Shown: positions 1 to 13,675, numbered from the stretch's first letter. The stretch is DNA of 64,000 bases from Patescibacteria group bacterium (GCA_020148145.1 JAHCRE010000016.1:164827-228826); one strand, 5' to 3'. Translations and numbers: made by a program. Notes: generated from the letters alone by a model not told the origin.

Positions 1-209
1 CTTCTTTTTGTAGAAAATAGAGAAATCCACCACATCCACAGCCTGCATCTAAAATCTTGGCATTTTTGTCTTTGGGTAAGTGTCTCTTAAAATAACCTTT
101 ATGAACTACAAACTTCTCTTCTAAGTCTTTATGGAAAACTCTTTTTTTCTCTTCTAAAAATTGACTTACATAAACATTATAAATCCTTTTTCTGTAATTA
201 TATTCTTGA
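1..209 (-). CDS. Class I SAM-dependent methyltransferase, N-terminal part only; the gene continues past the window edge
   Basis: Reverse-complement translation from the ATG at 207-209 gives MKDNQEYNYRKRIYNVY...ILDAGCGCGGFLYFLQKE, with the motif I glycine-rich loop of Rossmann-fold methyltransferases. Confidence 0.55.
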
Positions 210-2664: not shown

Positions 2665-3610
2665 TCATTTTTTTAAGACCCTCCTCCAGAGATACCTTCG
2701 GATAAAAATTAAGAAGTTTAATCATTTTTCCTACCTCTGGAAAACGATGTCTTACGTCTATATCTATTTTTCTATTCTTTACCAATCTGGGTTTAATTTT
2801 TCCTTCAAGACCGACTAAATTAATTATTTCGGTCGCTAAATCAAAAATTGTTAAAGGCCTACCGCTACCAATATTTATTATCTGACCACTGGTTTTCTCT
2901 AATTTCATTGCTCGCCAAGATGCCTCTACATTATCATCAATAAAAGTAAAATCTCTTGTCTGACGCCCATCGCCAAATACTGTTGGAGACTGACCAGATA
3001 AAACCTGCCTTATAAATATCCCCACCACAAAACCATAATCACTTCCGTCCTGCCTAGGACCGTAAACATTGAAGAATCTCAAAGAACAAGTTTTTAGGTT
3101 ATGTTTATAATAATAAGCCTCTAAAAATTTTTCTCCTATTAGTTTAACGGCAGCGTAAGGTATCTGTGGATTTATTGCTCCCTCTTCTTTTTCTGGCAGC
3201 TCTCTAGACTCTCCGTAAACCTCGGAGCTGGAGGCAAAAACAACTTTGGGTCTACCATATTTTAGTGATAGTTCTAGGATATTTTTAATTCCTTCTGCAT
3301 CTTTCAATACCATCAAAGGATTCTCAAGAGTTCTTTTTACTCCAACTGTAGCTGCATAATGAAATACTCCATTAAATTTATATTTTCTAAAAATAAGGGA
3401 AATATCTTTAATTTGGTTTATATCTCCTTTAATAAAAACGAAATTCGGATTTTTTTTAATTGTTAAAATATTTTTTAAGGTCCCGGTACTTAAATTGTCA
3501 AAACAGACAACCTTGTGTCCTATTTTTATTAGCTTTTCACATAAATGAGATCCAATAAATCCTGCTCCACCGGTAACTAAAAATGTTTTTTTATTTTTGT
3601 TTTTTTGCAT
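2642..3610 (-). CDS. NAD-dependent sugar epimerase/dehydratase (UDP-glucuronate decarboxylase / UXS-like SDR)
   Basis: TGGAGFIGSHLCEKL Rossmann motif and extended SDR features; 322 aa. Confidence 0.8.
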   Translation of the reverse strand: MQKNKNKKTFLVTGGAGFIGSHLCEKLIKIGHKVVCFDNLSTGTLKNILTIKKNPNFVFIKGDINQIKDISLIFRKYKFNGVFHYAATVGVKRTLENPLMVLKDAEGIKNILELSLKYGRPKVVFASSSEVYGESRELPEKEEGAINPQIPYAAVKLIGEKFLEAYYYKHNLKTCSLRFFNVYGPRQDGSDYGFVVGIFIRQVLSGQSPTVFGDGRQTRDFTFIDDNVEASWRAMKLEKTSGQIINIGSGRPLTIFDLATEIINLVGLEGKIKPRLVKNRKIDIDVRHRFPEVGKMIKLLNFYPKVSLEEGLKKMIDWYKNG

Positions 3611-4388
3611 ATTTCAAAATTAAATTCAGGGCTTTATTCTTGCAATATTTCTTAAGTATTGTGGCGTTTTCGCAAATACAGTGTCCACCAATGCCGCCTT
3701 TTGGAGGATAAAGAACTGGCCGAACAACATTCTTCTTACCCAACTTTTTATATCCTTCATTATAGGTTCTGTTAAACTCAGTTACCGCTTTTTCAAAATC
3801 AACCCCGGCCTTATCACAAATTTTTTTCATTTCTCCGTGCCAGGCAATACAAAGACCATAATAAGAAGTACTAAAGAGTTTTCCTATTTCAACGATTACC
3901 GATGGCTGAAATATCCTTGTTTTTATTCCCAGGCTTTCTAAATGTTTTTTGGCTAATTGACCTGCTTTTTTATTCTCGGTACCAATATATTTTACGAATG
4001 TTTTAATTCCTTCGTAAAGATAAGGATGAACTCCCCTTACCGGGCTGTAAACTATCATCTTCAGTTCTTTAGGTAAGGCTGAAACCAATTTTTTTGTGGT
4101 GAAAGGGGCAATAGAAGAATGAATAATAGTCAACTTTGGCTTAACTTCTTTTATTTCTTTTTTAACTATTTTTATAAAATTAGGAATCCAAGGGATACAG
4201 ATATGTAAGACCTCTACCCCCTTTAATCCATCGTCCCTCTTCAAATCCTTTATTTTTACTTGCCCGCCGAAGCGTTTGCGAAGGTGGGGACTCTTGTAGA
4301 ATTTAGCTAAAGCTCGACCCATTTCACCATAACCCAGTATGCCAATTTTTGATTTATTTTTTTTAGTCATAGGCATAGAAATTACCAC
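3591..4388 (-). CDS. NAD(P)-binding dehydrogenase-like protein, possibly a UDP-sugar-dehydrogenase-like enzyme
   Basis: N-terminal IGILGYGEMGRA dinucleotide-binding motif; a GGIGGHCICE segment is reminiscent of the catalytic Cys region of UDP-glucose dehydrogenase; overlaps the downstream gene. Confidence 0.4.
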   Translation of the reverse strand: MVISMPMTKKNKSKIGILGYGEMGRALAKFYKSPHLRKRFGGQVKIKDLKRDDGLKGVEVLHICIPWIPNFIKIVKKEIKEVKPKLTIIHSSIAPFTTKKLVSALPKELKMIVYSPVRGVHPYLYEGIKTFVKYIGTENKKAGQLAKKHLESLGIKTRIFQPSVIVEIGKLFSTSYYGLCIAWHGEMKKICDKAGVDFEKAVTEFNRTYNEGYKKLGKKNVVRPVLYPPKGGIGGHCICENATILKKYCKNKALNLILKYAKKQK

Positions 4389-4392
4389 CCCG

Positions 4393-4713
4393 TTAGAAAC
4401 CTTTAGCGAAAAAGGATTTTAATCTATTTTTTAGATATCTTCTACCCATTCCTGATTTAAGGTATTTTTCTCTTGCTTGGGCATCCTTTCTATTTAAACC
4501 GGCCTCATAATAGATGAGTTTCCATGGGATTCCATATTTAGTAGACCTATTCTTGCCCGAATTATGTGTTAAAATTCTTTTTCGCAAATCTTTGGTTGAA
4601 CCAATATACCAATCTCCTTTATTACTTTGTAAAACATAAATATACCACACCCCGTTAGAGATTACAAAGATAAAGAGAAAACACAGAGAAAACAAGTCTC
4701 TAACGGGGCACAT
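4393..4713 (-). CDS. Small GIY-YIG nuclease-family protein (YhbQ/UPF0213-like)
   Basis: WYIYVLQSNKGDWYIGSTKDLRKRILTHNSG...KDAQAREKYLK matches the GIY-YIG motifs. The ORF lies exactly between the 13-bp inverted repeats ccccgttagaaac (4385-4397) and gtttctaacgggg (4717-4729). Confidence 0.8.
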   Translation of the reverse strand: MCPVRDLFSLCFLFIFVISNGVWYIYVLQSNKGDWYIGSTKDLRKRILTHNSGKNRSTKYGIPWKLIYYEAGLNRKDAQAREKYLKSGMGRRYLKNRLKSFFAKGF

Positions 4714-4731
4714 AAACGGTTTCTAACGGGG

Positions 4732-4977
4732 CTACCATTTCTCAATGGTTTTTTTGGTTTTTCGTTTGAGGCGCTGATAAAAATTTACCGCCTTTCTCTC
4801 GACCTTTGGAGAAACTAATCTTAAAATTTCTTTCCCCCAGATTCTATATCTTCCCCCAACTTTGTTTGCCCGGATTATTCCGTTTTTTAGGAAACGCTTA
4901 ATAGTGCTGCTACTTATTTTCAAAAAATCTCGGGCTTCTTTAGTTGTGTAAACCTCATTTGGTTTTATTTCTTCCAT
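4732..4977 (-). CDS. Excisionase/MerR-type helix-turn-helix DNA-binding protein (HTH_17-like)
   Basis: EVYTTKEARDFLKISSSTIKRFLKNGIIRANKVGGRYRIWGKEIL resembles the Xis-family HTH. The start was moved to the internal MEEIKP; the track ORF extends to 5022. Confidence 0.55.
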   Translation of the reverse strand: MEEIKPNEVYTTKEARDFLKISSSTIKRFLKNGIIRANKVGGRYRIWGKEILRLVSPKVERKAVNFYQRLKRKTKKTIEKW

Positions 4978-5079
4978 ATTTCCATAATAAGACACCCCAA
5001 AAGGGGTGTCAAGAGGTATCAATAGAGGTCAATTCATGGCCATTTTTGCAGTTGTCCCTAGCACTTGGGAATTCCCCAA

Positions 5080-5838
5080 TTACTTTTTTAATTTTCTTCC
5101 ATAGCTTTCTGTTTTGTAATGACAATTTCTGCAAAGGGTTATTCCATTCGAAATATCCAAAACTAAAGAAGGATATCTTGATACTGGTTTAATGTGATGT
5201 ACTTCCATAACTCTTTTTTCCCTAAATCTTATGCCACATTTTTGGCAGGTGTAATTATCACGTTCTAAAATTTTCTTGGCCCAATTCTTTAATTCTACTC
5301 TTAGTCTATGTGCTAATGTCTCTTCTCTTTTGGTTAAACCTCCTTTCCAATTTGGATTCTTGGAACCTAGGTGTTTTTCAATATATTCTTTATTTTGCCA
5401 AAGTTTTTTAATAATATTGCTTATTTTATTTCTTATTTCCAGATTATCTCTATATTGCTTTAGCTTTGTCTCTCTTATTTTGTTTTTTATAGCTTCTGAG
5501 AGCTGCTTTCCCCAATTAGGGTGTTTCGGTCCTCTAATTGCTTCACTTATCTTTCGTTTTGTCTCCCCTAAGAGTCTTTTTCCTTTTTGAGCTTGACTAA
5601 TTTTTTTTCTTGTTTCTTCGGAATGATGCTTGCCCAACATTAATGGTTTTCTTTTCCCTTCTCTCCATTGCCTTTTCATGGCTTCACTAATATTCCTTCT
5701 ATGTTCTTCTGAAAATTTTCTACCTTTCATTGCCAAACTTGTTTTCTCTCGTTCTTTCTCATCTTTATATCTTTCTTTCTGAGCTAAACTCATTTTTCTT
5801 TTGTATTCGTTAGTTCTTATGTATACTCCAGTTGGCAT
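5080..5838 (-). CDS. HNH homing-type endonuclease with repeated NUMOD3 DNA-binding motifs
   Basis: Repeated G(K/R)xxSEEx(R/K)xKIS motifs (NUMOD3) and a C-terminal HHIKPVSRYPSLVLDISNGITLCRNCH HNH motif. The start is placed at the internal MPTGVY so that it does not overlap the upstream gene. Confidence 0.75.
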   Translation of the reverse strand: MPTGVYIRTNEYKRKMSLAQKERYKDEKEREKTSLAMKGRKFSEEHRRNISEAMKRQWREGKRKPLMLGKHHSEETRKKISQAQKGKRLLGETKRKISEAIRGPKHPNWGKQLSEAIKNKIRETKLKQYRDNLEIRNKISNIIKKLWQNKEYIEKHLGSKNPNWKGGLTKREETLAHRLRVELKNWAKKILERDNYTCQKCGIRFREKRVMEVHHIKPVSRYPSLVLDISNGITLCRNCHYKTESYGRKLKK

Positions 5839-5845
5839 ATTATTT

Positions 5846-6595
5846 TTATTTCCATTTACGAATTGCAGTTTCATAACGCTCGAAAGTTCCTGTGTCCATC
5901 CATTTACCATTAAATTTAAAACCTGTTAATTTTTTTTCTTTGGCTAATTTTGGGAAAAGGTCTTTTTCAATCATTGAAAACTTGGGGCCAGGATGATAAT
6001 TGAAAATTTCAGGGGAAAGTAAATAAAGACCAGAAGAAATATATTGAGTCGTGGATTTCTTGCCCGCCCAAGTTTTCTTTAAAATTTGGGCGGGTGAAGG
6101 TTTTTCTAAAAACTCTTGAACTAAACCATTTTTGCAAATAACAACTCCATAATCTTGAGGATTTGGAACTTTCACTAAAGCTATGGTTGCCGGGGTTTTC
6201 TTTTTTTGATGGAAATTTTTCATTTCAAATAATTTTATCTTTTTTAACTCATCACCATTAGTAAAAAAGAATGGTTCGGCGGGCTCACCACTAGGTGACC
6301 CTTTAGAAAGCCAATCTTTTAAATAAAAAAGGCCTCCAAAAGTTCCCAGAGGCTTTTTTTCTTCAAATATCTTAATTTTTTCTTTAGGATAATATCTTTT
6401 TTTCCACCAATCAAAATCTTCCCGGAAATCTCTATTAATTAAAATAGCTATTTTTTTTATTCCGTAAGAATGAAAGAGGTCAACCAAATGATTTAAAATG
6501 GGTTTTCTTTTTATTGGCAAAAGGGGTTTTGGTAACTCTTTAGTTATTGGATAAAGTCGAGATCCCGCCCCTCCGGCCAAGATTACTGCTTTCAT
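5846..6595 (-). CDS. Sugar-phosphate nucleotidyltransferase (glucose-1-P thymidylyl/uridylyl-transferase-like)
   Basis: MKAVILAGGAGSRLYPITKELPKPLLPI is the canonical NTP-transferase N-terminus. The track ORF carries a 20-aa N-terminal extension up to 6655. Confidence 0.8.
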   Translation of the reverse strand: MKAVILAGGAGSRLYPITKELPKPLLPIKRKPILNHLVDLFHSYGIKKIAILINRDFREDFDWWKKRYYPKEKIKIFEEKKPLGTFGGLFYLKDWLSKGSPSGEPAEPFFFTNGDELKKIKLFEMKNFHQKKKTPATIALVKVPNPQDYGVVICKNGLVQEFLEKPSPAQILKKTWAGKKSTTQYISSGLYLLSPEIFNYHPGPKFSMIEKDLFPKLAKEKKLTGFKFNGKWMDTGTFERYETAIRKWK

Positions 6596-9014: not shown

Positions 9015-9046
9015 AGTTAATTAATTAATTTTCTTCAAAACCTAAA

Positions 9047-9081
9047 CCCCCCACCAGAATCTGGTGGGGGGTGGATTTTTT
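9047..9081 (+). terminator. Intrinsic terminator hairpin (ccccccaccag-aat-ctggtgggggg) followed by a T-run
   Basis: An 11-bp GC-rich perfect stem followed by tggatttttt, 33 nt after the stop codon of the TPR/ligase gene. Confidence 0.7.
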
Positions 9082-9185
9082 ACTCAAGCCGCCCAAGGAT
9101 AGCCGGCTTGCCCGCCTAAGTTTTACCGAAGGTAAAATTTGGGCGAGTCCATTTCAAGAACAAAACTTTGGATTTCAACTAAGAT

Positions 9186-12100
9186 TTACTCAGGATTGAC
9201 GAATGAACCTGCGAAAATATCGCCACGGAAGACGATTACACCTTCAGAAAGATTTCCTTCACCATCAATACCAAACTTACAATTAGCGTTATTACCATCA
9301 TCTAACCAGAGTTGAAGAGTATCACCATTGGCTTCAAAGTCAGTGGTATCACCGTAAACTTTCAGTTGCTTGGTTAGACCAGCAGGAACAGTAAAAGCAT
9401 TAGTGGAACCAGTATTATCCTCAAAGAGGAAAGTTACACTACCACTAGTATTCAACTGGTCATCCTCTACAGTAACTGAAGAAAGCTGAGTACCATCTCC
9501 ATCCTTCAAATACCAAGTACTAGAGCTTCCATCACTATTGGATGCATAAGCATTAATCTGTACGATTAGCTGATTTGAATCAGTATCTTCAAAGGTAATA
9601 TCCTCAGTATCTTCAGCAGTTACGTCAAAGGTAGCCAATAAGGTCTGTGAGCTAGGTATCAAGTTACCGGAAGGTGAAGCAGAGTTAACAGCAAAGTATG
9701 GCCTGCTTTCGAAGGCATACATCGTATTACCAGCAACACTATCATCTGAATTGGCTTCTGCACCTGAGGCTAAACCAGTGGATTCAATGATATAAGTGCT
9801 TCCATCAAAACCTACTTGAACGTCACCGTCGTCAGTCAAGGTTAAACCATAACCAACTTGGTTCAGCAAACCTTTCACCGTAAGTTCAACATGGCCGTTA
9901 GCTGGAACAGTTACTGTACCATCACTAATAGCTACATAATTAGTTGTGCCTCCCTGAGCTGTCTGAATTGGAGTATCAGCTGAAACTCCATCAGAACGAG
10001 CACTGCTGTAGAAGTAGTAAGTATTTACATAATTACCACCTGTAACACTGATATATATACTATCCAAATCTAGGTCTTCTATCTCGGTAGCAGCTAACCT
10101 AAAGACAGCCAAAGTAGATGTCTTTTGACCAATGATTATGTCAGAAGTAGGCGAAGAAGCATCCTTAGTAACGGTTAATTCACCACTGGCTTTTACGGTC
10201 ATTCCCTGACCAGGACCAGATGGAGTAACAGTAATACTCGCTCCAGTGTCAGCACCTGTAGCTGTTACAGCAGAAATGTCAATCGTGTGAATATCATCAG
10301 TGGTTGCCCCAGTAGAAAGATCACCAACAAAGGCAATCTTTATATAGGTTCCTTTTGGAACAGTAATGGTCTGAGTTAAACTGAAAGCTTGGGAACCACT
10401 ACCAGCGGCTGTTGGGAACTCTGTGTCACTAACTTTGGTTTCATAGATGTCGCCTCTTGCACTATTCTCTGTAGTTAAATCAGCCCAGATTTCGCAGTTA
10501 TCAATATCAACAAATCCTCCTGTGCCAGTCCCTGTTCTGGTGTCAGTAACTGTTATGGAAGTAACATTGACATCTTCACCAGAGGTACCAGCACTGAGAG
10601 AACCAGTCATCCAAACAAAATCATGGATACCTTTGGCCACATTTCTAGCTTGTGGCTCGGTCAAAGTGGTAGCTAGCAAGGCTCCGGCAGCTACTGTCTG
10701 ACGATTTCCCTCAATCGCAGTAGTAGGTGATGGGGTTATTGACTCATTAGTGGTCATTCCCTTAGCCGTAATGTCAGAGTCAGGAGTGTCAATACCAGTT
10801 TCTACATAGTCATCAGTTTCGCAGGCAGAGGCAATCTTTGCCTTTACTGTATATTGGTGAGTACCAACTGGAACAATAAAGGTGTCAGTGAAGTCTACAT
10901 CATTAGTATCAGCAGCGTCTTTGGGTCCACAAACAATGCCTCCATCTTCATCATAAACTTTTATATTGGTCAACTCGTCATAAGTCATACTACCAAAATC
11001 AAAGTCAATATGAAGGGCTGAAATCTTAACTTCCTCACCCCGAGCATAAAAGTCAAAAACAGTCAATTCCTGATCACTAGATGGAGCAATATTACCTGTA
11101 GCTGGAGTGTCTGCTGATATGGAAATAGTCAAGGATCCTTCCTGGATGTTTTGGTCAGTTCCTTTACCAGTTCCTGTACCTAGCCAAGTACCGCTGGAAG
11201 GAGTGATATAAAAGCCGTAGGTGTTACCCTTCACGGTCATTAAAACATCACTGCCATCAACTAAGTCAGCATTAATAGTTAGACCAGAACCACCAACTAT
11301 ATCTAACATCACCTTGAACCTATGGGTTTCTCCTTTGTCAACCACAATGTCTAAATCGGGCCAACTGGCTTTACCTTCTGAATTCCAGCTAGCAACGGTA
11401 CCTAAGCTCTTGCTGTCGGTGACACTGTAGAGTTCAATGTCAGTGGTATCATCCAAAGCAGCAGTTCCAGCTTCCATCACGGTAATTTGCTCAATAGTGA
11501 TGGCTTCCGTTGAACCTGCACTTACTTTAAAGGCAAGTACCTTAACATCGGTATCTCCAATATCTGGTGTGGAATCAACAGTAGTCTCTTCATCTACATC
11601 GGCTGAACCAATAGTTATGCTTACAAAAGTCATTGTATTCCCAGTTACTGGGAAACTACCAGTAATCTCTGAAGCATCAGAAGTTATGTCGTCAGCTGAA
11701 CCAATACCCAAAGCTGCTGTGTTACCAGCAGGAGCAGTAGTAGTAGACTCAACGACTCCAGCTCTAATGTAAAAACTCCTACTTGTTCCGGCTGAAATTA
11801 CTAAATTCGGAACAAAAGTAATCATTGCTCGGTTATCAACATTCAAGCTGCCAAGACTACCGTGATAAACCCCGGTACTAACATCAACAATTTTAATGTT
11901 CTCTATGGCAGAATTAGATGATAAACCTGAGCGAGTTACATAGATCTTGGAGATAGAAACATCCCCTTCAGAACCAGCTGTCAGAGTAAACTTAGTGAAG
12001 TTGGCATTGGCGTTATTAGCCACACTGGCTGCAGCTGAAGTGTCAGCAGCTAAAGCAACACCCAAACCAGCAGCAACTGGAGGAACTTCCTCTTTAACAC

Positions 12101-12605
12101 ATTCTTCTGCTGTACAGACATAACCTGTTGGGCAATCAGCATCAGTGGTACATTCTACTGGAATAGCACACAAATCATCATAGGCAGCCTGAGATTTAGG
12201 ACCAAAGTAGCCCCACCAATCTCCGTATTCTACACCATTGGCATCTTGCCAGGCCTTAACGGCTGCCCGGGTAAGAGGACCAAAGTATGTGGTCTCTGAA
12301 CCAGGTGAACCAGGACCGGAGTCAGCCAAGGTGTAACCCGTGTCGTTCAAGTATTCCTGCAAACACTTTACATCATCTCCACTCATCTCAGGATAGAGAT
12401 TCCGAGTAAAGGTACAAGGACAAACACCAGGTGGAGCTTCTCCTTTAAGGTCTGCTAATTGGGACTGCAAAGATGATAATTGCGCCAACAGAGCAGCAAT
12501 TTGAGCCTCTAATTCCTCAATGGTTACAGCCATAACCGGACTTACAGCCCAAACTAAAACAGTTAAAACCGTGGCAATCGATACAATCTTTTTTAATAAA
12601 CTCAT
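9186..12605 (-). CDS. Large cell-surface protein with signal peptide, coiled coil, peptidoglycan-binding (PG_binding_1-like) domain and a long Thr/Ser/Gly/Asp-rich beta-rich region (S-layer/adhesin-like)
   Basis: N-terminal TM/signal, EELEAQIAALLAQLSSLQSQLADLKGE coiled coil, CLQEYLNDTGY...GPLTRAAVKAWQDANGVE PG-binding-like segment, then about 950 aa of low-complexity T/S/G/D-rich sequence. The coding GC is far above the genome background. Confidence 0.6.
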   Translation of the reverse strand: MSLLKKIVSIATVLTVLVWAVSPVMAVTIEELEAQIAALLAQLSSLQSQLADLKGEAPPGVCPCTFTRNLYPEMSGDDVKCLQEYLNDTGYTLADSGPGSPGSETTYFGPLTRAAVKAWQDANGVEYGDWWGYFGPKSQAAYDDLCAIPVECTTDADCPTGYVCTAEECVKEEVPPVAAGLGVALAADTSAAASVANNANANFTKFTLTAGSEGDVSISKIYVTRSGLSSNSAIENIKIVDVSTGVYHGSLGSLNVDNRAMITFVPNLVISAGTSRSFYIRAGVVESTTTAPAGNTAALGIGSADDITSDASEITGSFPVTGNTMTFVSITIGSADVDEETTVDSTPDIGDTDVKVLAFKVSAGSTEAITIEQITVMEAGTAALDDTTDIELYSVTDSKSLGTVASWNSEGKASWPDLDIVVDKGETHRFKVMLDIVGGSGLTINADLVDGSDVLMTVKGNTYGFYITPSSGTWLGTGTGKGTDQNIQEGSLTISISADTPATGNIAPSSDQELTVFDFYARGEEVKISALHIDFDFGSMTYDELTNIKVYDEDGGIVCGPKDAADTNDVDFTDTFIVPVGTHQYTVKAKIASACETDDYVETGIDTPDSDITAKGMTTNESITPSPTTAIEGNRQTVAAGALLATTLTEPQARNVAKGIHDFVWMTGSLSAGTSGEDVNVTSITVTDTRTGTGTGGFVDIDNCEIWADLTTENSARGDIYETKVSDTEFPTAAGSGSQAFSLTQTITVPKGTYIKIAFVGDLSTGATTDDIHTIDISAVTATGADTGASITVTPSGPGQGMTVKASGELTVTKDASSPTSDIIIGQKTSTLAVFRLAATEIEDLDLDSIYISVTGGNYVNTYYFYSSARSDGVSADTPIQTAQGGTTNYVAISDGTVTVPANGHVELTVKGLLNQVGYGLTLTDDGDVQVGFDGSTYIIESTGLASGAEANSDDSVAGNTMYAFESRPYFAVNSASPSGNLIPSSQTLLATFDVTAEDTEDITFEDTDSNQLIVQINAYASNSDGSSSTWYLKDGDGTQLSSVTVEDDQLNTSGSVTFLFEDNTGSTNAFTVPAGLTKQLKVYGDTTDFEANGDTLQLWLDDGNNANCKFGIDGEGNLSEGVIVFRGDIFAGSFVNPE

Positions 12606-13500: not shown

Positions 13501-13537
13501 CCTAATAAGTATGACGGAAAAAATAGCCCTTTTATTA

Positions 13538-13566
13538 CACCCCGTTAGAAAATTTTTCTAACGGGG
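13538..13566. repeat. Intact perfect palindrome ccccgttagaaaatttttctaacgggg; the same 13-nt half-sites flank the GIY-YIG gene at 4385/4717
   Basis: Direct reading of the sequence; 10-bp arms plus an A/T centre. Related half-sites gtttctaacggtcg and gtttctaatggtcg also occur in repeats R1 and R2. Confidence 0.8.
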
Positions 13567-13675
13567 TTACAGTAAATTTACCCGGTAGAGCAACTTCGAC
13601 TTTCCCTTCCCAATAATTCTTGAATTCTCAGTCATACTTTGTGTTTTTCTTTTAGAAAAACACCTGTCGAAGTTG

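Follow-up and report, generated by a model that had tools for sequence, protein, structure and literature searches.

The window analyzed here, a 64,000-nucleotide stretch of DNA from a Patescibacteria group bacterium (GCA_020148145.1, JAHCRE010000016.1:164827-228826), carries three minus-strand open reading frames (ORFs) at positions 4393-5838, in which ORF and profile searches identified GIY-YIG, HTH_17 and NUMOD3 plus HNH domains, respectively (Table 1). A first-pass annotation made from the sequence had described the same three genes, and their coordinates and domain calls were upheld. The neighbors it had named were likewise confirmed, namely a gene for a short NDP-sugar-dehydrogenase-like (DH-like) protein (3591..4376/4388) on one side and an NTP_transferase gene, followed by epimerase, flippase and wecB genes, on the other. 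The DH-like gene is the first sugar gene 3' of the GIY-YIG element, and its product has 1,925 homologues with ~70% identity across Patescibacteria. The HTH, GIY-YIG and HNH genes and the operon genes are co-oriented and tightly packed. The GC content is ~0.33-0.36 over the whole region, and since it shows no step at the GIY-YIG or HNH insertions, compositional evidence for a recent transfer fails. No paralogues of the three proteins were found in the 64-kb window, no tRNA genes were detected, and an exact look-up of the 85-residue GIY-YIG protein gave no match. An independent assembly of the same organism (L232) was 100% identical, with no presence/absence polymorphism there.

Table 1 Features of the locus and of a related solo palindrome; positions are counted from the first nucleotide of the window.
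Feature	Position	Strand	Size	Details
DH-like gene (short NDP-sugar-dehydrogenase-like)	3591..4376	-	261 aa	weak PF00984 match at 4.9e-6
Downstream direct-repeat copy	4382..4387	-		TGGTAA, then TTTCT, then the DH-like ATG at 4376
GIY-YIG mobile element	4388..4731	-	344 bp	canonical body of 281 bp plus 63-nt secondary insertion; boundaries set by inverted and flanking direct repeats
Right terminal inverted repeat	4388..4401	-	14 bp	GGTTTCTAACGGGG; codes for the two C-terminal residues and the stop
GIY-YIG nuclease ORF	4393..4650	-	85 aa	from GTG 4650 (106 aa from ATG 4713); PF01541 at 3e-15
Nested mini-element	4650..4708	-	59 bp	CCCCGTTAGAGA..35 nt..TCTCTAACGGGG; in the GIY-YIG start codon region
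Left terminal inverted repeat	4718..4731	-	14 bp	CCCCGTTAGAAACC
Upstream direct-repeat copy	4732..4737	-		TGGTAG; contains the HTH stop codon
HTH_17 (excisionase-fold) DNA-binding protein	4732..4977	-	81 aa	PF12728 at 2.8e-9
Promoter/operator of the HTH-led operon	4984..5032	-		promoter consensus match at 11/12 positions
HNH endonuclease with N-terminal NUMOD3 repeats	5080..5838	-	252 aa	PF07460 at 7e-17 (3 stretches) and PF01844 at 7.2e-12
NTP_transferase gene (sugar-1-phosphate nucleotidyltransferase)	5846..6595	-		PF00483 at 1.3e-38
Solo mini-element/palindrome, same family	13540..13566	.	27 bp	CCCCGTTAGAAAA-T-TTTTCTAACGGGG; intergenic spacer

The HTH ORF spans 4732..5022, and its product passes the excisionase-family model TIGR01764 (31.9 bits, cut-off 28.8). 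The start codon is most likely ATG 4977, as in the orthologous sequences. Orthologues with 56-76% identity occur on the same strand in ~30 of 58 related Patescibacteria loci, directly upstream of DH-like, NTP or cytidylyltransferase genes. Orthologues were also found in loci L002/L003, and those in L147 and L233 are 85% and 78% identical to the HTH protein of the window. No integrase was detected near the gene in the window or in the relatives' loci. PHROG excisionase families match the protein, PADLOC returned no match for it, and a comparison with solved structures gave none at E ≤ 1.

Three TTGAC-type direct repeats in 10-nt phase (5032-5003) lie upstream of the HTH gene, together with a -35 box (TTGACA, 5012-5007), a -10 box (TATTAT, 4989-4984, 6 nt before the ATG) and an inverted repeat, GACACCCC-TTTT-GGGGTGTC, at 5010-4991 (hairpin -16.5 kcal/mol). 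The orthologues in related genomes are preceded by the same promoter/operator architecture, and the pattern TTGnnn-16..18-TAnnnT was present in 23 of 31 distinct regions upstream of them. This conservation at the sequence level indicates that the HTH gene is a resident heading the glycan locus and that the promoter/operator in front of it is ancestral, so that the two would form the ancestral head of the glycan operon. The direct and inverted TGACACC repeats are the most likely binding site of the HTH protein, a putative autoregulated transcription factor that would control the HTH-DH-epimerase-flippase-wecB series.

The HNH ORF extends over 5080..5838/5910, and the start preferred in the first-pass annotation, ATG 5838, is conserved in L147. 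The gene begins 7 nt past the NTP_transferase stop codon and encodes an intact HNH motif of the type CxxC..HH..N..CxxCH (CQKCG..EVHHIKP..N..LCRNCH). PHROG HNH/homing-endonuclease families match the protein, which has 153 relatives in viral contigs. In 6/6 lineages the homologues are located directly 3' of the NTP_transferase orthologue, followed by four different genes: HTH in the window, L147 and L233, DH in L142/143, an epimerase in L144-146, and a gene for a 329-residue protein in L234-236. No HNH homologue was detected by tblastn (E ≤ 1e-4) in any of the 58 syntenic reference loci, which include five NTP-bearing lineages. Because it combines an intact HNH motif and NUMOD3 repeats with an NTP-tied position, a sporadic distribution and absence from the reference loci, the gene appears to behave as a free-standing homing-endonuclease gene of ordinary type that is bound to the NTP_transferase 3' end. 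Intronless homing is the likely mechanism: an allele without HNH would be cleaved by the nuclease close to the NTP_transferase 3' end and repaired by recombination with an HNH-carrying donor, whereby the HNH gene would be copied into the short spacer. When the window is compared with L147, DNA identity is highest over the HNH ORF (0.78-0.97, versus 0.62-0.85 in the NTP_transferase gene). This peak is no more than suggestive of co-conversion, as constraint could instead explain it. None of the loci compared combined the NTP-HTH order with a lack of HNH, as would be needed to define an empty site.

The strict adjacency to the NTP_transferase gene in all six lineages could also be expected if the HNH-NUMOD3 protein were a domesticated partner of the NTP_transferase or the glycan pathway, such as a regulator or defence nuclease, and PADLOC did match it weakly to defence HNH models, ZorE and PtuB among them. 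These matches cover the HNH motif only, the gene is missing from the five NTP-bearing lineages and the 58 reference loci, and both the NUMOD3 modules and the closest phage families are of homing type. We therefore regard domestication as quite unlikely. A defence-system reading of the three genes was rejected, as PADLOC was silent on the GIY-YIG and HTH proteins and the matches of the HNH protein were confined to the motif level.

The GIY-YIG gene is enclosed by two 14-bp inverted repeats and, outside these, by a 6-nt TGGTA(G/A) direct repeat with one mismatch. These repeats and the duplication bracket the GIY-YIG ORF alone, leaving out HTH and HNH. The empty sites of relatives contain the target only once (..AAATGG TAA TTT..), and L147, L233, L006 and L012 are among those without an insertion at the HTH 3' junction. 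The stop codon of the nuclease (TAA, 4393-4395) lies inside the right inverted repeat. Two in-frame forms of the protein can be read, one of 106 residues from ATG 4713 (ORF 4393..4713) and one of 85 residues from GTG 4650. The shorter form is used by NCBI and in the family alignment, and it is 100% identical to the NCBI-annotated protein P0121.

The window element measures 344 bp because a 59-bp mini-element of the same family is inserted inside it. This nested copy is flanked by TGTG at 4709-4712 and 4646-4649, has a predicted hairpin of -17.9 kcal/mol, keeps the reading frame and creates the GTG start at 4650. Deleting the 63 nt gives back the canonical ..GTTT ATG TGG TAT, and L079 and L093 have independent mini-elements at this ATG|TG site. 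The solo copy (hairpin -17.1 kcal/mol) has the 5-nt direct repeat TTACA on either side (13535-13539 and 13567-13571). All six perfect copies of the shared 10-mer in the 64 kb lie at this solo site or around the GIY-YIG gene, and a search with a related 12-mer gave 4 matches in the window versus 0.19 expected. No transposase gene was found next to the element copies in the window. An RNA gene or riboswitch as an explanation of the palindromes is unsupported, since Rfam returned no match in the whole window (gathering thresholds) or in an E-value search of 4300-5150.

Comparison across genomes yielded 66 distinct insertions, each in its own flanking context, with an element length of 280-286 bp. 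The terminal inverted repeats are perfect over 13-15 bp and share a CCCCGTTAGAA core. The left arm was present in 76 of 77 family loci, at -15 to -21 relative to the start codon, the stop codon falls within the right arm in 76 of 79, and the two arms co-vary across the family. By eye, L148 shows a 12/13 arm variant of the CCCGTAGGATTT type. Exact direct repeats of at least 4 nt flank 49 of the 66 insertions (45 of them exactly 4 nt), compared to ~9 with shuffled partners; 11 of the 66 elements have no exact direct repeat. The target duplication follows the pattern Y-N-N-R (T56/C7 at position 1 and A43/G20 at position 4). An alternative parsing has a duplication of 2 nt and assigns R...Y ends to the element. 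The copies in the window, L062, L067 and L141 depart from the usual length with a duplication of 6 nt. The family also includes MITE-like derivatives (27-132 bp), found as 35 mini-element pairs, 17 of which have exact 4-nt repeats, nested ones included. In the 58 syntenic reference loci, tblastn (E ≤ 1e-4) detected no GIY-YIG gene. Its family has 2,130 representatives at E ≤ 1e-10 and only 4 distant relatives in 2.9 million viral contigs, around which an exact-match scan found no inverted repeats.

These data make it very improbable that the GIY-YIG gene is a vertically inherited housekeeping or repair nuclease of the UPF0213-like kind, with the palindrome serving as terminator, processing site or translational regulator. 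Many bacteria do encode UPF0213 proteins on the chromosome, a stable RNA or DNA stem would form from the arms, and base-pairing would lead one to expect their co-variation. However, such a gene would not be expected to show the excess of direct repeats outside the arms (49/66 versus ~9), empty sites in the closest relatives, 66 different flanking contexts, GIY-less copies with duplications of their own, nested copies and insertions inside coding starts.

Surviving GIY-YIG copies have the orientation of the host gene and occupy its start codon, -35 box or stop codon, a signal that the duplication regenerates. In 36 of 44 cases a long host ORF begins with the NTG codon at the junction, compared to a null expectation of 0.16. 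The target duplications TGAA and TATG occur 30 times and their reverse complements 0 times. Of 16 TGAA-class copies, 13 stand in an open frame with the host ATG, and 9 of those 13 lack an ATG codon of their own. This 'targeting' of start codons and -35 boxes may largely be selection on survivors rather than enzyme specificity. The family appears to be built for read-through. The element lacks its own promoter and ribosome-binding site, and the nuclease would be translated from host-loaded ribosomes, either fused in frame to the host ATG or following a 3-codon uORF or the stop codon of the upstream gene, with the host gene restarting 4-5 nt past the nuclease stop codon. In the window the element sits on the HTH stop codon and would be read through into the DH-like gene. 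The family shows that the 'streamlined' genomes of the Candidate Phyla Radiation (CPR) carry an abundant, overlooked layer of mobile DNA that systematically distorts gene calls, with false N-terminal extensions (such as the 106-residue ORF in the window), GTG restarts and in-frame peptide insertions as examples.

An alignment of 24 GIY-YIG sequences revealed the invariant residues Y3, Y5, Y15, G17, R25, H29, N30, E61 and N75, and the dN/dS of the family (0.097) indicates purifying selection. Among solved structures, the best sequence matches were 1zg2 (E = 1.6e-7) and 1ywl (3.8e-3), with I-TevI marginal (E = 0.44). The structure model comprises a single beta-beta-alpha-beta-alpha-alpha domain, with the catalytic domain at approximately residues 2-82, and Foldseek placed it closest to 1zg2 (1.5e-4, probability 1.00), followed by Slx1 (6seh). 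Judging from sequence matches and the model, the protein is Slx1/UPF0213-like. Neither the profile search nor the model revealed a separate DNA-binding domain in the 85 residues. A homing endonuclease of the I-TevI/Seg type was rejected on account of the missing linker and DNA-binding domain, the terminal inverted repeats with 4-bp duplications, and the near absence of the family from viral contigs.

Taken together, the GIY-YIG gene is the sole ORF of a ~281-bp transposon-like element. We tentatively propose, giving the proposal slightly less than even weight, that this element represents an unrecognized class of prokaryotic transposable elements that uses an 85-residue Slx1-like nuclease as transposase. 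It would be the smallest autonomous DNA transposon known (~283 bp), have its own MITEs, be expressed parasitically via host start codons, promoters and stop codons, and be abundant across the CPR. The Slx1/UPF0213-like nuclease would recognize the paired or duplex repeats and make symmetric staggered cuts that move the element, and host ligase or repair may complete excision and integration.

An alternative that we consider unlikely is that the inverted-repeat element is mobile and is moved by an unlinked conventional transposase, with an IS5-like DDE enzyme as candidate, while GIY-YIG is cargo, e.g., an accessory or 'addiction' nuclease or one that promotes break-repair copying. The 4-bp symmetric duplication is typical of DDE transposition, GIY-YIG enzymes are hydrolytic and not known to perform strand transfer, and the MITE-like copies show that mobilization in trans takes place. 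A cargo role is difficult to reconcile with the findings that every full element contains the GIY-YIG ORF and nothing else, that the stop codon is embedded in the right arm in 76/79 loci, that the ORF is under strong purifying selection, and that no transposase gene lies beside the copies in the window. Moreover, a second, diverged GIY-YIG subtype has different arms, although this co-evolution of nuclease and arms rests on one full type-2 element.

The stretch of 1.45 kb is probably a mosaic of three independent units, i.e., the resident HTH gene, the HNH homing gene and the GIY-YIG element, and not one insertion. The GIY-YIG and HNH genes are considered independent because each occurs without the other and because the GIY-YIG repeats and duplication exclude HTH and HNH: L147 and L233 have the order NTP-HNH-HTH without GIY-YIG, and L062, L067 and L141 have HTH-GIY. 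The first-pass annotation had seen three selfish-looking genes inserted into the operon, with the HNH gene of a type typical of phage and intron contexts, and had suggested that the insertion may be recent and may split the transcription of the operon. Its view of the genes as selfish holds for GIY-YIG and HNH, which bear selfish hallmarks and are missing from the 58 syntenic loci. It does not hold for HTH, whose retention in ~30 of these loci corresponds in part to the conservation, for all three genes at this position, that the annotation itself had named as speaking against its view. That all three form one recent selfish cassette of GIY-YIG, excisionase and HNH genes, interrupting the operon and derived from a phage or intron, thus seems scarcely credible, even though each of the three domain families is known from mobile elements, the PHROG matches include excisionase and HNH families, and two of the genes are missing from the syntenic loci. 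Such a cassette conflicts with the conservation of HTH together with its own operator, with the separate occurrence of HNH and GIY-YIG (the latter after HTH in unrelated sub-lineages), with repeats that enclose the GIY-YIG ORF only, and with the lack of a composition break, of an integrase and, nearly so, of GIY-YIG relatives in viral contigs. Nor is the GIY-YIG protein a homing endonuclease of the I-TevI type known from phages and introns, in view of its compact 85-residue Slx1/UPF0213-like domain and viral near-absence. A recent date is improbable as well, since the site is occupied in three diverged genomes, one duplication copy is mutated, a second element lies inside the first, and the composition is host-like. 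Neither the GIY-YIG nor the HNH insertion looks recent or obviously polar.

For this locus, the mosaic means that the regulator gene of the operon is native and that the two parasites are probably expression-neutral passengers. The HNH gene is of the ordinary homing type. The GIY-YIG element is of a kind for which we found no description: the literature covered, mostly outside subscription journals, contained no account of a GIY-YIG element with terminal inverted repeats and target duplications or with MITEs. If the GIY-YIG protein mobilizes the element, it would extend the few known catalytic classes of transposases by a new one and define a minimal mobile element of ~283 bp with one 85-residue protein. 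A compact nuclease with a putative, defined recognition repeat of 13-15 bp could also serve as a tool. In-frame palindromic protein insertions and the puzzling non-intron GIY-YIG insertions of CPR rRNA genes may also go back to this element, and the latter would then have an explanation. GIY-YIG-encoding insertions in CPR rRNA genes were reported by Tsurumaki et al. (2024, PMC11270868) and possibly belong to the same family; that paper, the only one found with a related statement, describes no inverted repeats, duplications or mini-elements.

Among known systems, the GIY-YIG family resembles IS elements and MITEs, i.e., DNA transposons with terminal inverted repeats and target duplications such as IS5, in having inverted repeats, a symmetric duplication of fixed length, empty sites and nested copies, in the many contexts of its insertions, and in its short non-autonomous derivatives, which share the ends of the full element. 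The IS5 family has 4-bp target duplications of the YTAR type. Unlike in these elements, the only ORF encodes an 85-residue GIY-YIG protein and not a DDE, DEDD, HUH, serine, tyrosine or Cas1 transposase, and the ~283-bp element has no promoter or ribosome-binding site, carries its stop codon in the right repeat and depends on host start codons.

The best sequence and fold matches of the protein are UPF0213/COG2827 members (BH0048, PDB 1zg2; EF2693, PDB 1ywl) and Slx1, with which it shares a single catalytic domain of ~85-100 residues and the Y..Y..G..R..H/N..E..N residues. We found no description in the literature of a mobile-element context for the solved UPF0213 proteins, and Slx1 needs an Slx4 partner and a RING/PHD domain, which is absent from the GIY-YIG protein. 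I-TevI and the T4 Seg proteins share the GIY-YIG catalytic chemistry and selfish spread, but have a long linker and DNA-binding domains, occupy introns or phage intergenic sites and rely on break repair for their spread, with neither inverted repeats nor duplications.

REP/REPIN sequences with their RAYTs likewise combine one small nuclease-type gene between inverted palindromes with dispersed short palindromic derivatives, and by this analogy, which is one of architecture only, a hairpin or structure-specific mechanism is plausible for the GIY-YIG element. RAYTs, however, belong to the HUH-Y1 enzymes and are usually encoded by domesticated single-copy genes, and REPINs are not flanked by target duplications, whereas the GIY-YIG element has no HUH domain and each of its full copies is bounded by a duplication.

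The HNH gene shares the HNH domain and NUMOD3 repeats with free-standing nucleases of the T4 Mob and I-HmuI type, which spread by intronless homing, and like them it occupies a tiny spacer next to one conserved gene and is sporadically distributed. It differs in its reversed domain order, with NUMOD3 N-terminal and HNH C-terminal, and in its host, which is not a phage but a CPR bacterial chromosome with a glycan operon. Finally, the HTH protein shares its fold family (HTH_17, excisionase/MerR fold; PF12728, TIGR01764) and small size with Xis and AlpA, but it is encoded without an integrase or prophage as the first gene of a polysaccharide locus. Because it is conserved in this first position together with an operator-like repeat array, it appears to act more like a dedicated regulator than like an excisionase.

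ORF calling and domain search agreed with the first-pass annotation on the three minus-strand ORFs between the sugar genes, their domains and their neighbours. An NTP_transferase gene (NTP) lies upstream, and a dehydrogenase-like gene (DH-like) followed by epimerase, flippase and wecB genes lies downstream. The DNA, which comes from a Patescibacteria (CPR) metagenome-assembled genome, is low in GC (about 0.33), and GC content was constant across the 4393-5838 region, with no shift found. No tRNA or Rfam family was found in the window by the respective searches. The DH-like protein is 100% identical to the NCBI entry 'hypothetical protein KJA15_02890 [Patescibacteria group bacterium]'. It has 261 aa versus about 413 aa for NDP-sugar dehydrogenases, and its match covers the N-terminal and central parts only (profile positions 101-281 of 413). 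Because proteins of this kind form a large and well-conserved CPR family (1,925 hits, about 70% identity), it is a short enzyme in its own right, not the product of a truncated gene.

Features of the nuclease-bearing stretch and of the GIY-YIG element within it
Feature	Position in window	Strand	Details
GIY-YIG ORF	4393..4713	minus	GIY-YIG domain 3e-15
HTH ORF	4732..5022	minus	HTH_17 domain 2.8e-9
HNH ORF	5080..5910	minus	NUMOD3 x3 7e-17 + HNH 7.2e-12
HTH end TGG TAG	4737-4732	minus	
Left arm CCCCGTTAGAAACC	4731-4718	minus	followed by GTTT and ATGTG (4713-4709)
Nested 59-nt hairpin element CCCCGTTAGAGA...TCTCTAACGGGG	4708-4650	minus	followed by TGTG (4649-4646) and the GIY ORF
Right arm GGTTTCTAACGGGG	4401-4388	minus	contains stop codon TAA (4395-4393)
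TGGTAA	4387-4382	minus	followed by TTTCT, then DH-like ATG (4376)

Using an alignment of the DH-like protein (A1), we fetched 58 loci from species-representative genomes and mapped all window proteins onto them (loci and contigs of relatives are denoted by L and a number). The 81-aa HTH protein was found on the same strand in about 30 of the 58 loci with 56-76% identity; its gene immediately precedes DH-like, NTP-DH, or DH with a ~150-aa cytidylyltransferase-like gene in between. L002 and L003 also carry an orthologue. The GIY-YIG and HNH proteins had no match in any of the 58 syntenic loci. Thus, the HTH gene is native to this locus, and the nuclease genes on its two sides are lineage-specific additions. 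The first-pass annotation had read all three genes as a selfish insertion and had proposed the comparison of syntenic loci as a check; its reading holds for the two nucleases, whereas the HTH gene is conserved at its position. The stretch is hence a mosaic, with a resident regulator between two unrelated parasites, of which the HNH part is ordinary and the GIY-YIG part is the interesting one. In L018 (541-1578), the cytidylyltransferase-like gene directly after HTH carries an in-frame fusion to a different HNH-type ORF (DHVIP..CVSCNARKHN); here another genome has independently acquired a nuclease insertion at this locus. A local hot spot for nuclease genes is suggested by one short contig (L093, 3-1367), on which a DH-like gene end, an HNH-like ORF (40% identity to the C-terminal part of the HNH protein of the window) and a GIY-YIG element with a nested 131-nt GIY-less derivative lie together.

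Upstream of the HTH start codon (ATG, 4977) we found a promoter match, TTGACA-17-TATTAT (11 of 12 positions), three TTGAC-type direct repeats in 10-nt phase (5032-5003), and an inverted repeat, GACACCCC-TTTT-GGGGTGTC, between the two promoter hexamers. Relatives share this layout, with direct repeats of the form TTGAC(A/C)CC, the motif GACACCC-N4-6-GGGTGTC, and 6-12 nt between a -10 box and the ATG, and a promoter-like match occurred in 23 of 31 distinct HTH upstream regions. Because relatives carry the same arrangement, the predicted promoter is ancestral and not imported. The HTH protein has an excisionase fold (TIGR01764 score above the cut-off), and no integrase context was found around its gene. 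Its likeliest role is that of a putative autoregulated regulator of the downstream sugar genes.

Close homologues of the HNH protein are few (about 20, 50-82% identity) and directly follow an NTP gene in every context recovered, the gene orders being NTP-HNH-HTH (L147, L233), HTH-NTP-HNH-DH (L142/143), NTP-HNH-epimerase (L144-146) and NTP-HNH-329-aa gene (L234-236). Five lineages with the same NTP gene (L002, L014, L023, L039, L043) have no HNH gene. The ORF begins about 10 nt past the NTP stop codon, with the start ATGCCAA common to the window and L147. DNA identity between these two peaks over the HNH ORF (0.78-0.97) and is lower on both sides (0.62-0.85 in NTP; falling from 0.92 to 0.70 across HTH). 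Viral contigs often encode the wider NUMOD3+HNH architecture (153 relatives, ≤38% identity), and the protein matches PHROG HNH and homing-endonuclease families. The linkage to NTP, the absence from five NTP lineages, the identity peak and the viral and PHROG matches together bear the signature of a free-standing homing-endonuclease-type gene tied to one target gene, NTP, which its product would cleave. This is the pattern of intronless homing, which is established for the Seg and Mob genes of phage T4.

The GIY-YIG gene lies in a 344-bp inverted-repeat unit (4388-4731; the GIY element). Upstream of the ORF there are two copies of CCCCGTTAGA; its complement TCTAACGGGG likewise has two, one immediately preceding the GIY core and the other spanning the stop codon. 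The 64 kb contain six perfect copies of this 10-mer, all of them around the GIY gene or at 13540-13566, where a solo copy has TTACA on either side; the 12-mer occurs four times in the 64-kb window versus 0.19 expected. In silico deletion of the inner 63 nt gives ..GTTT ATG TGG TAT.., the canonical 5' end of the GIY family, and NCBI and the family alignment use the 85-aa form of the protein. Since the element is tightly packed between genes (0 nt after the HTH stop codon, 11 nt before the DH-like start) and terminator prediction gave none from 4977 to 4376, a polar effect on the operon is unlikely.

Element-free relatives (L006, L012, L026, L061, L147, L233) read ..AAATGG TAA TTT..ATG once only, which is the window sequence minus the element and one TGGTAA copy. 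L062, L067 and L141 carry an element at this stop codon too. In the HTH identity matrix, the nearest relatives of the window are empty (L147, 85%; L233, 78%), L062 and L067 group with the empty L012 and L142, and between the window and L062 identity is higher for GIY (86%) than for HTH (70%). By these patterns, gain or loss at this site has happened repeatedly. The first-pass annotation had taken the insertion as possibly recent, which for the GIY copy is contradicted by its upstream repeat, mutated from TAA to TAG (still a stop codon), and by the second element nested inside; the copy thus does not appear to be fresh.

Thousands of proteins from many CPR lineages are 73-86% identical to the GIY protein. 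The family counts 2,130 50%-cluster representatives at E ≤ 1e-10 and is nearly missing from viral contigs (4 distant hits). Where homologues have been mis-called with an N-terminal extension, this reads SNGV or NPVRN, the translated palindrome. Among 80 metagenomic loci, 76/77 have the left arm at position -15 to -21 relative to the start codon, and 76/79 have the stop codon inside the right arm. The 66 elements with distinct flanks are 280-286 bp long, and in 49 of them an exact direct repeat of at least 4 nt abuts the arms (exactly 4 nt in 45; about 9 expected with shuffled partners). The arms are 13-15-bp perfect inverted repeats that co-vary (position 12: 49 A/A and 14 G/G pairs, 2 mismatched; position 13: 43 C/C and 18 T/T, 4 mismatched). 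Duplicated words, most commonly TGAA, TATG and TTGA, follow the rule Y-N-N-R (position 1: T 56, C 7; position 4: A 43, G 20); a 2-nt duplication with R...Y element ends is an equally valid parse. The fetched DNA also contains GIY-less minis, 27-132 bp long and bounded by the same arms; 17 have exact 4-nt repeats. In L014 a mini occupies the HTH start codon, and in the window, L079 and L093 minis are nested at the GIY ATG|TG site. Purifying selection on the ORF is strong (median dN/dS 0.097, dS about 1.3). A diverged subtype (L083) has different arms, CCCGCCCAA...TTGGG(C/T)GGG, and again a stop codon within the right arm. On the IMG/VR contig L148 (~4001-4246), a 49%-identical homologue apparently lies between variant inverted repeats, CCCCGTAGGATTT...AAATCCAACGGGG (12/13 positions), which the exact-match scan missed. 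An element in L069 directly follows a tRNA-like 3' end (..GGTTCGATTCCCGCCCGGTCCA|CCCC; duplication TCCA), and a distant viral-contig homologue (L151, 562-792) has tRNA-like CCCCGGTAGCTCAGTTGGTA on both sides.

In 36/44 cases (null 0.16), an NTG codon in or created by the duplication is the start of a host ORF of 60 codons or more. ORFs of 124-725 codons follow in all TATG cases, and TGAA cases place G|TG before ORFs of up to 662 codons. TGAA and TATG together number 30, against none for their reverse complements; TTGA occurs 8 and TCAA 4 times. In 13/16 TGAA-class copies, the original host ATG is open and in frame with the GIY ORF (MNPVRN..WY..), and 9 of these 13 copies have no ATG of their own. 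In the TATG class, the host ATG opens MPR*, ended by a TAG in the left arm shortly (a few nucleotides) ahead of the GIY ATG. After the GIY stop codon come CGGG and the regenerated host start. Because duplications open host ORFs, the host ATG is in frame and an own ATG is often missing, GIY elements lack expression signals of their own, riding on host transcription and translation and restoring the host signal. Judged from sequence, such siting may reflect either enzyme specificity or survival of harmless insertions. The sequences show the boundaries, duplications, empty sites and derivatives of the element, the constraint on its protein and arms, and its expression parasitism. The Slx1-like GIY nuclease would recognise the arms, as duplex or as extruded hairpin or cruciform, and make symmetric staggered cuts; arm co-variation would favour the extruded form. 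Since GIY-YIG enzymes are hydrolytic, this leaves the joining step without explanation, and the main rival is that a conventional transposase mobilises the element in trans.

Palindromes of the second element type, represented by L083, occur elsewhere in the window. A 32-nt palindrome, CCCGCCCAAGTTTT-CTTT-AAAATTTGGGCGGG (6063-6094, minus strand; also L002 6386-6417), lies inside the NTP coding sequence, and its arms resemble the ends of the L083 element (1507-1799). It encodes an in-frame 12-residue insertion (..EKP-SPAQILKKTWAGKKST..) present only in the window and L002, while ten other orthologues read ..EKP-KNPPS.., and recalls the Rickettsia palindromic elements, of which in-frame insertion into genes is a feature. 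Another, CCCGCCTAAGTTTTACCGAAGGTAAAATTTGGGCGAG, lies in the spacer between a convergent Wzy-like gene and a 1139-aa gene, adjoined by a 12-bp G+C-rich hairpin resembling a bidirectional terminator (9111-9147 and 9046-9072 for the pair). This 1139-aa gene (9186-12605; GC 0.41-0.48 versus 0.33 around it) is kept beside the Wzy-like gene in relatives (about 54% identity; PG_binding_1 hit in the L232 copy) and probably encodes a surface or cell-wall protein. A window-specific 8-residue insertion in NTP (SPSGEPAE, about 6270-6290) and a variable DH-like segment (SPHLRKRFGGQ, 4262-4276) have GGCGGGC-type sequence in common (repeats I18 and D13) and may be decayed in-frame palindromic insertions.

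The GIY protein was also considered as an I-TevI-type homing endonuclease, which we rejected, as it is nearer to UPF0213 proteins (1zg2, 1.6e-7) and Slx1 than to I-TevI (0.44); fold ranking of an AlphaFold model (pLDDT 81.8) likewise placed UPF0213/Slx1 first. GIY-YIG-encoding insertions in CPR rRNA genes are reported by Tsurumaki et al. 2024 (PMC11270868). Full-text literature searches, with most subscription journals outside their coverage, found no description of such an element. The chance that the element represents a new class of transposon is substantial, if a little below even. Compared with an insertion sequence and its MITEs, it has all the anatomical features but not a recognised transposase class. 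Its architecture is like that of REPIN/RAYT systems, from which it differs in its enzyme and in having duplications.
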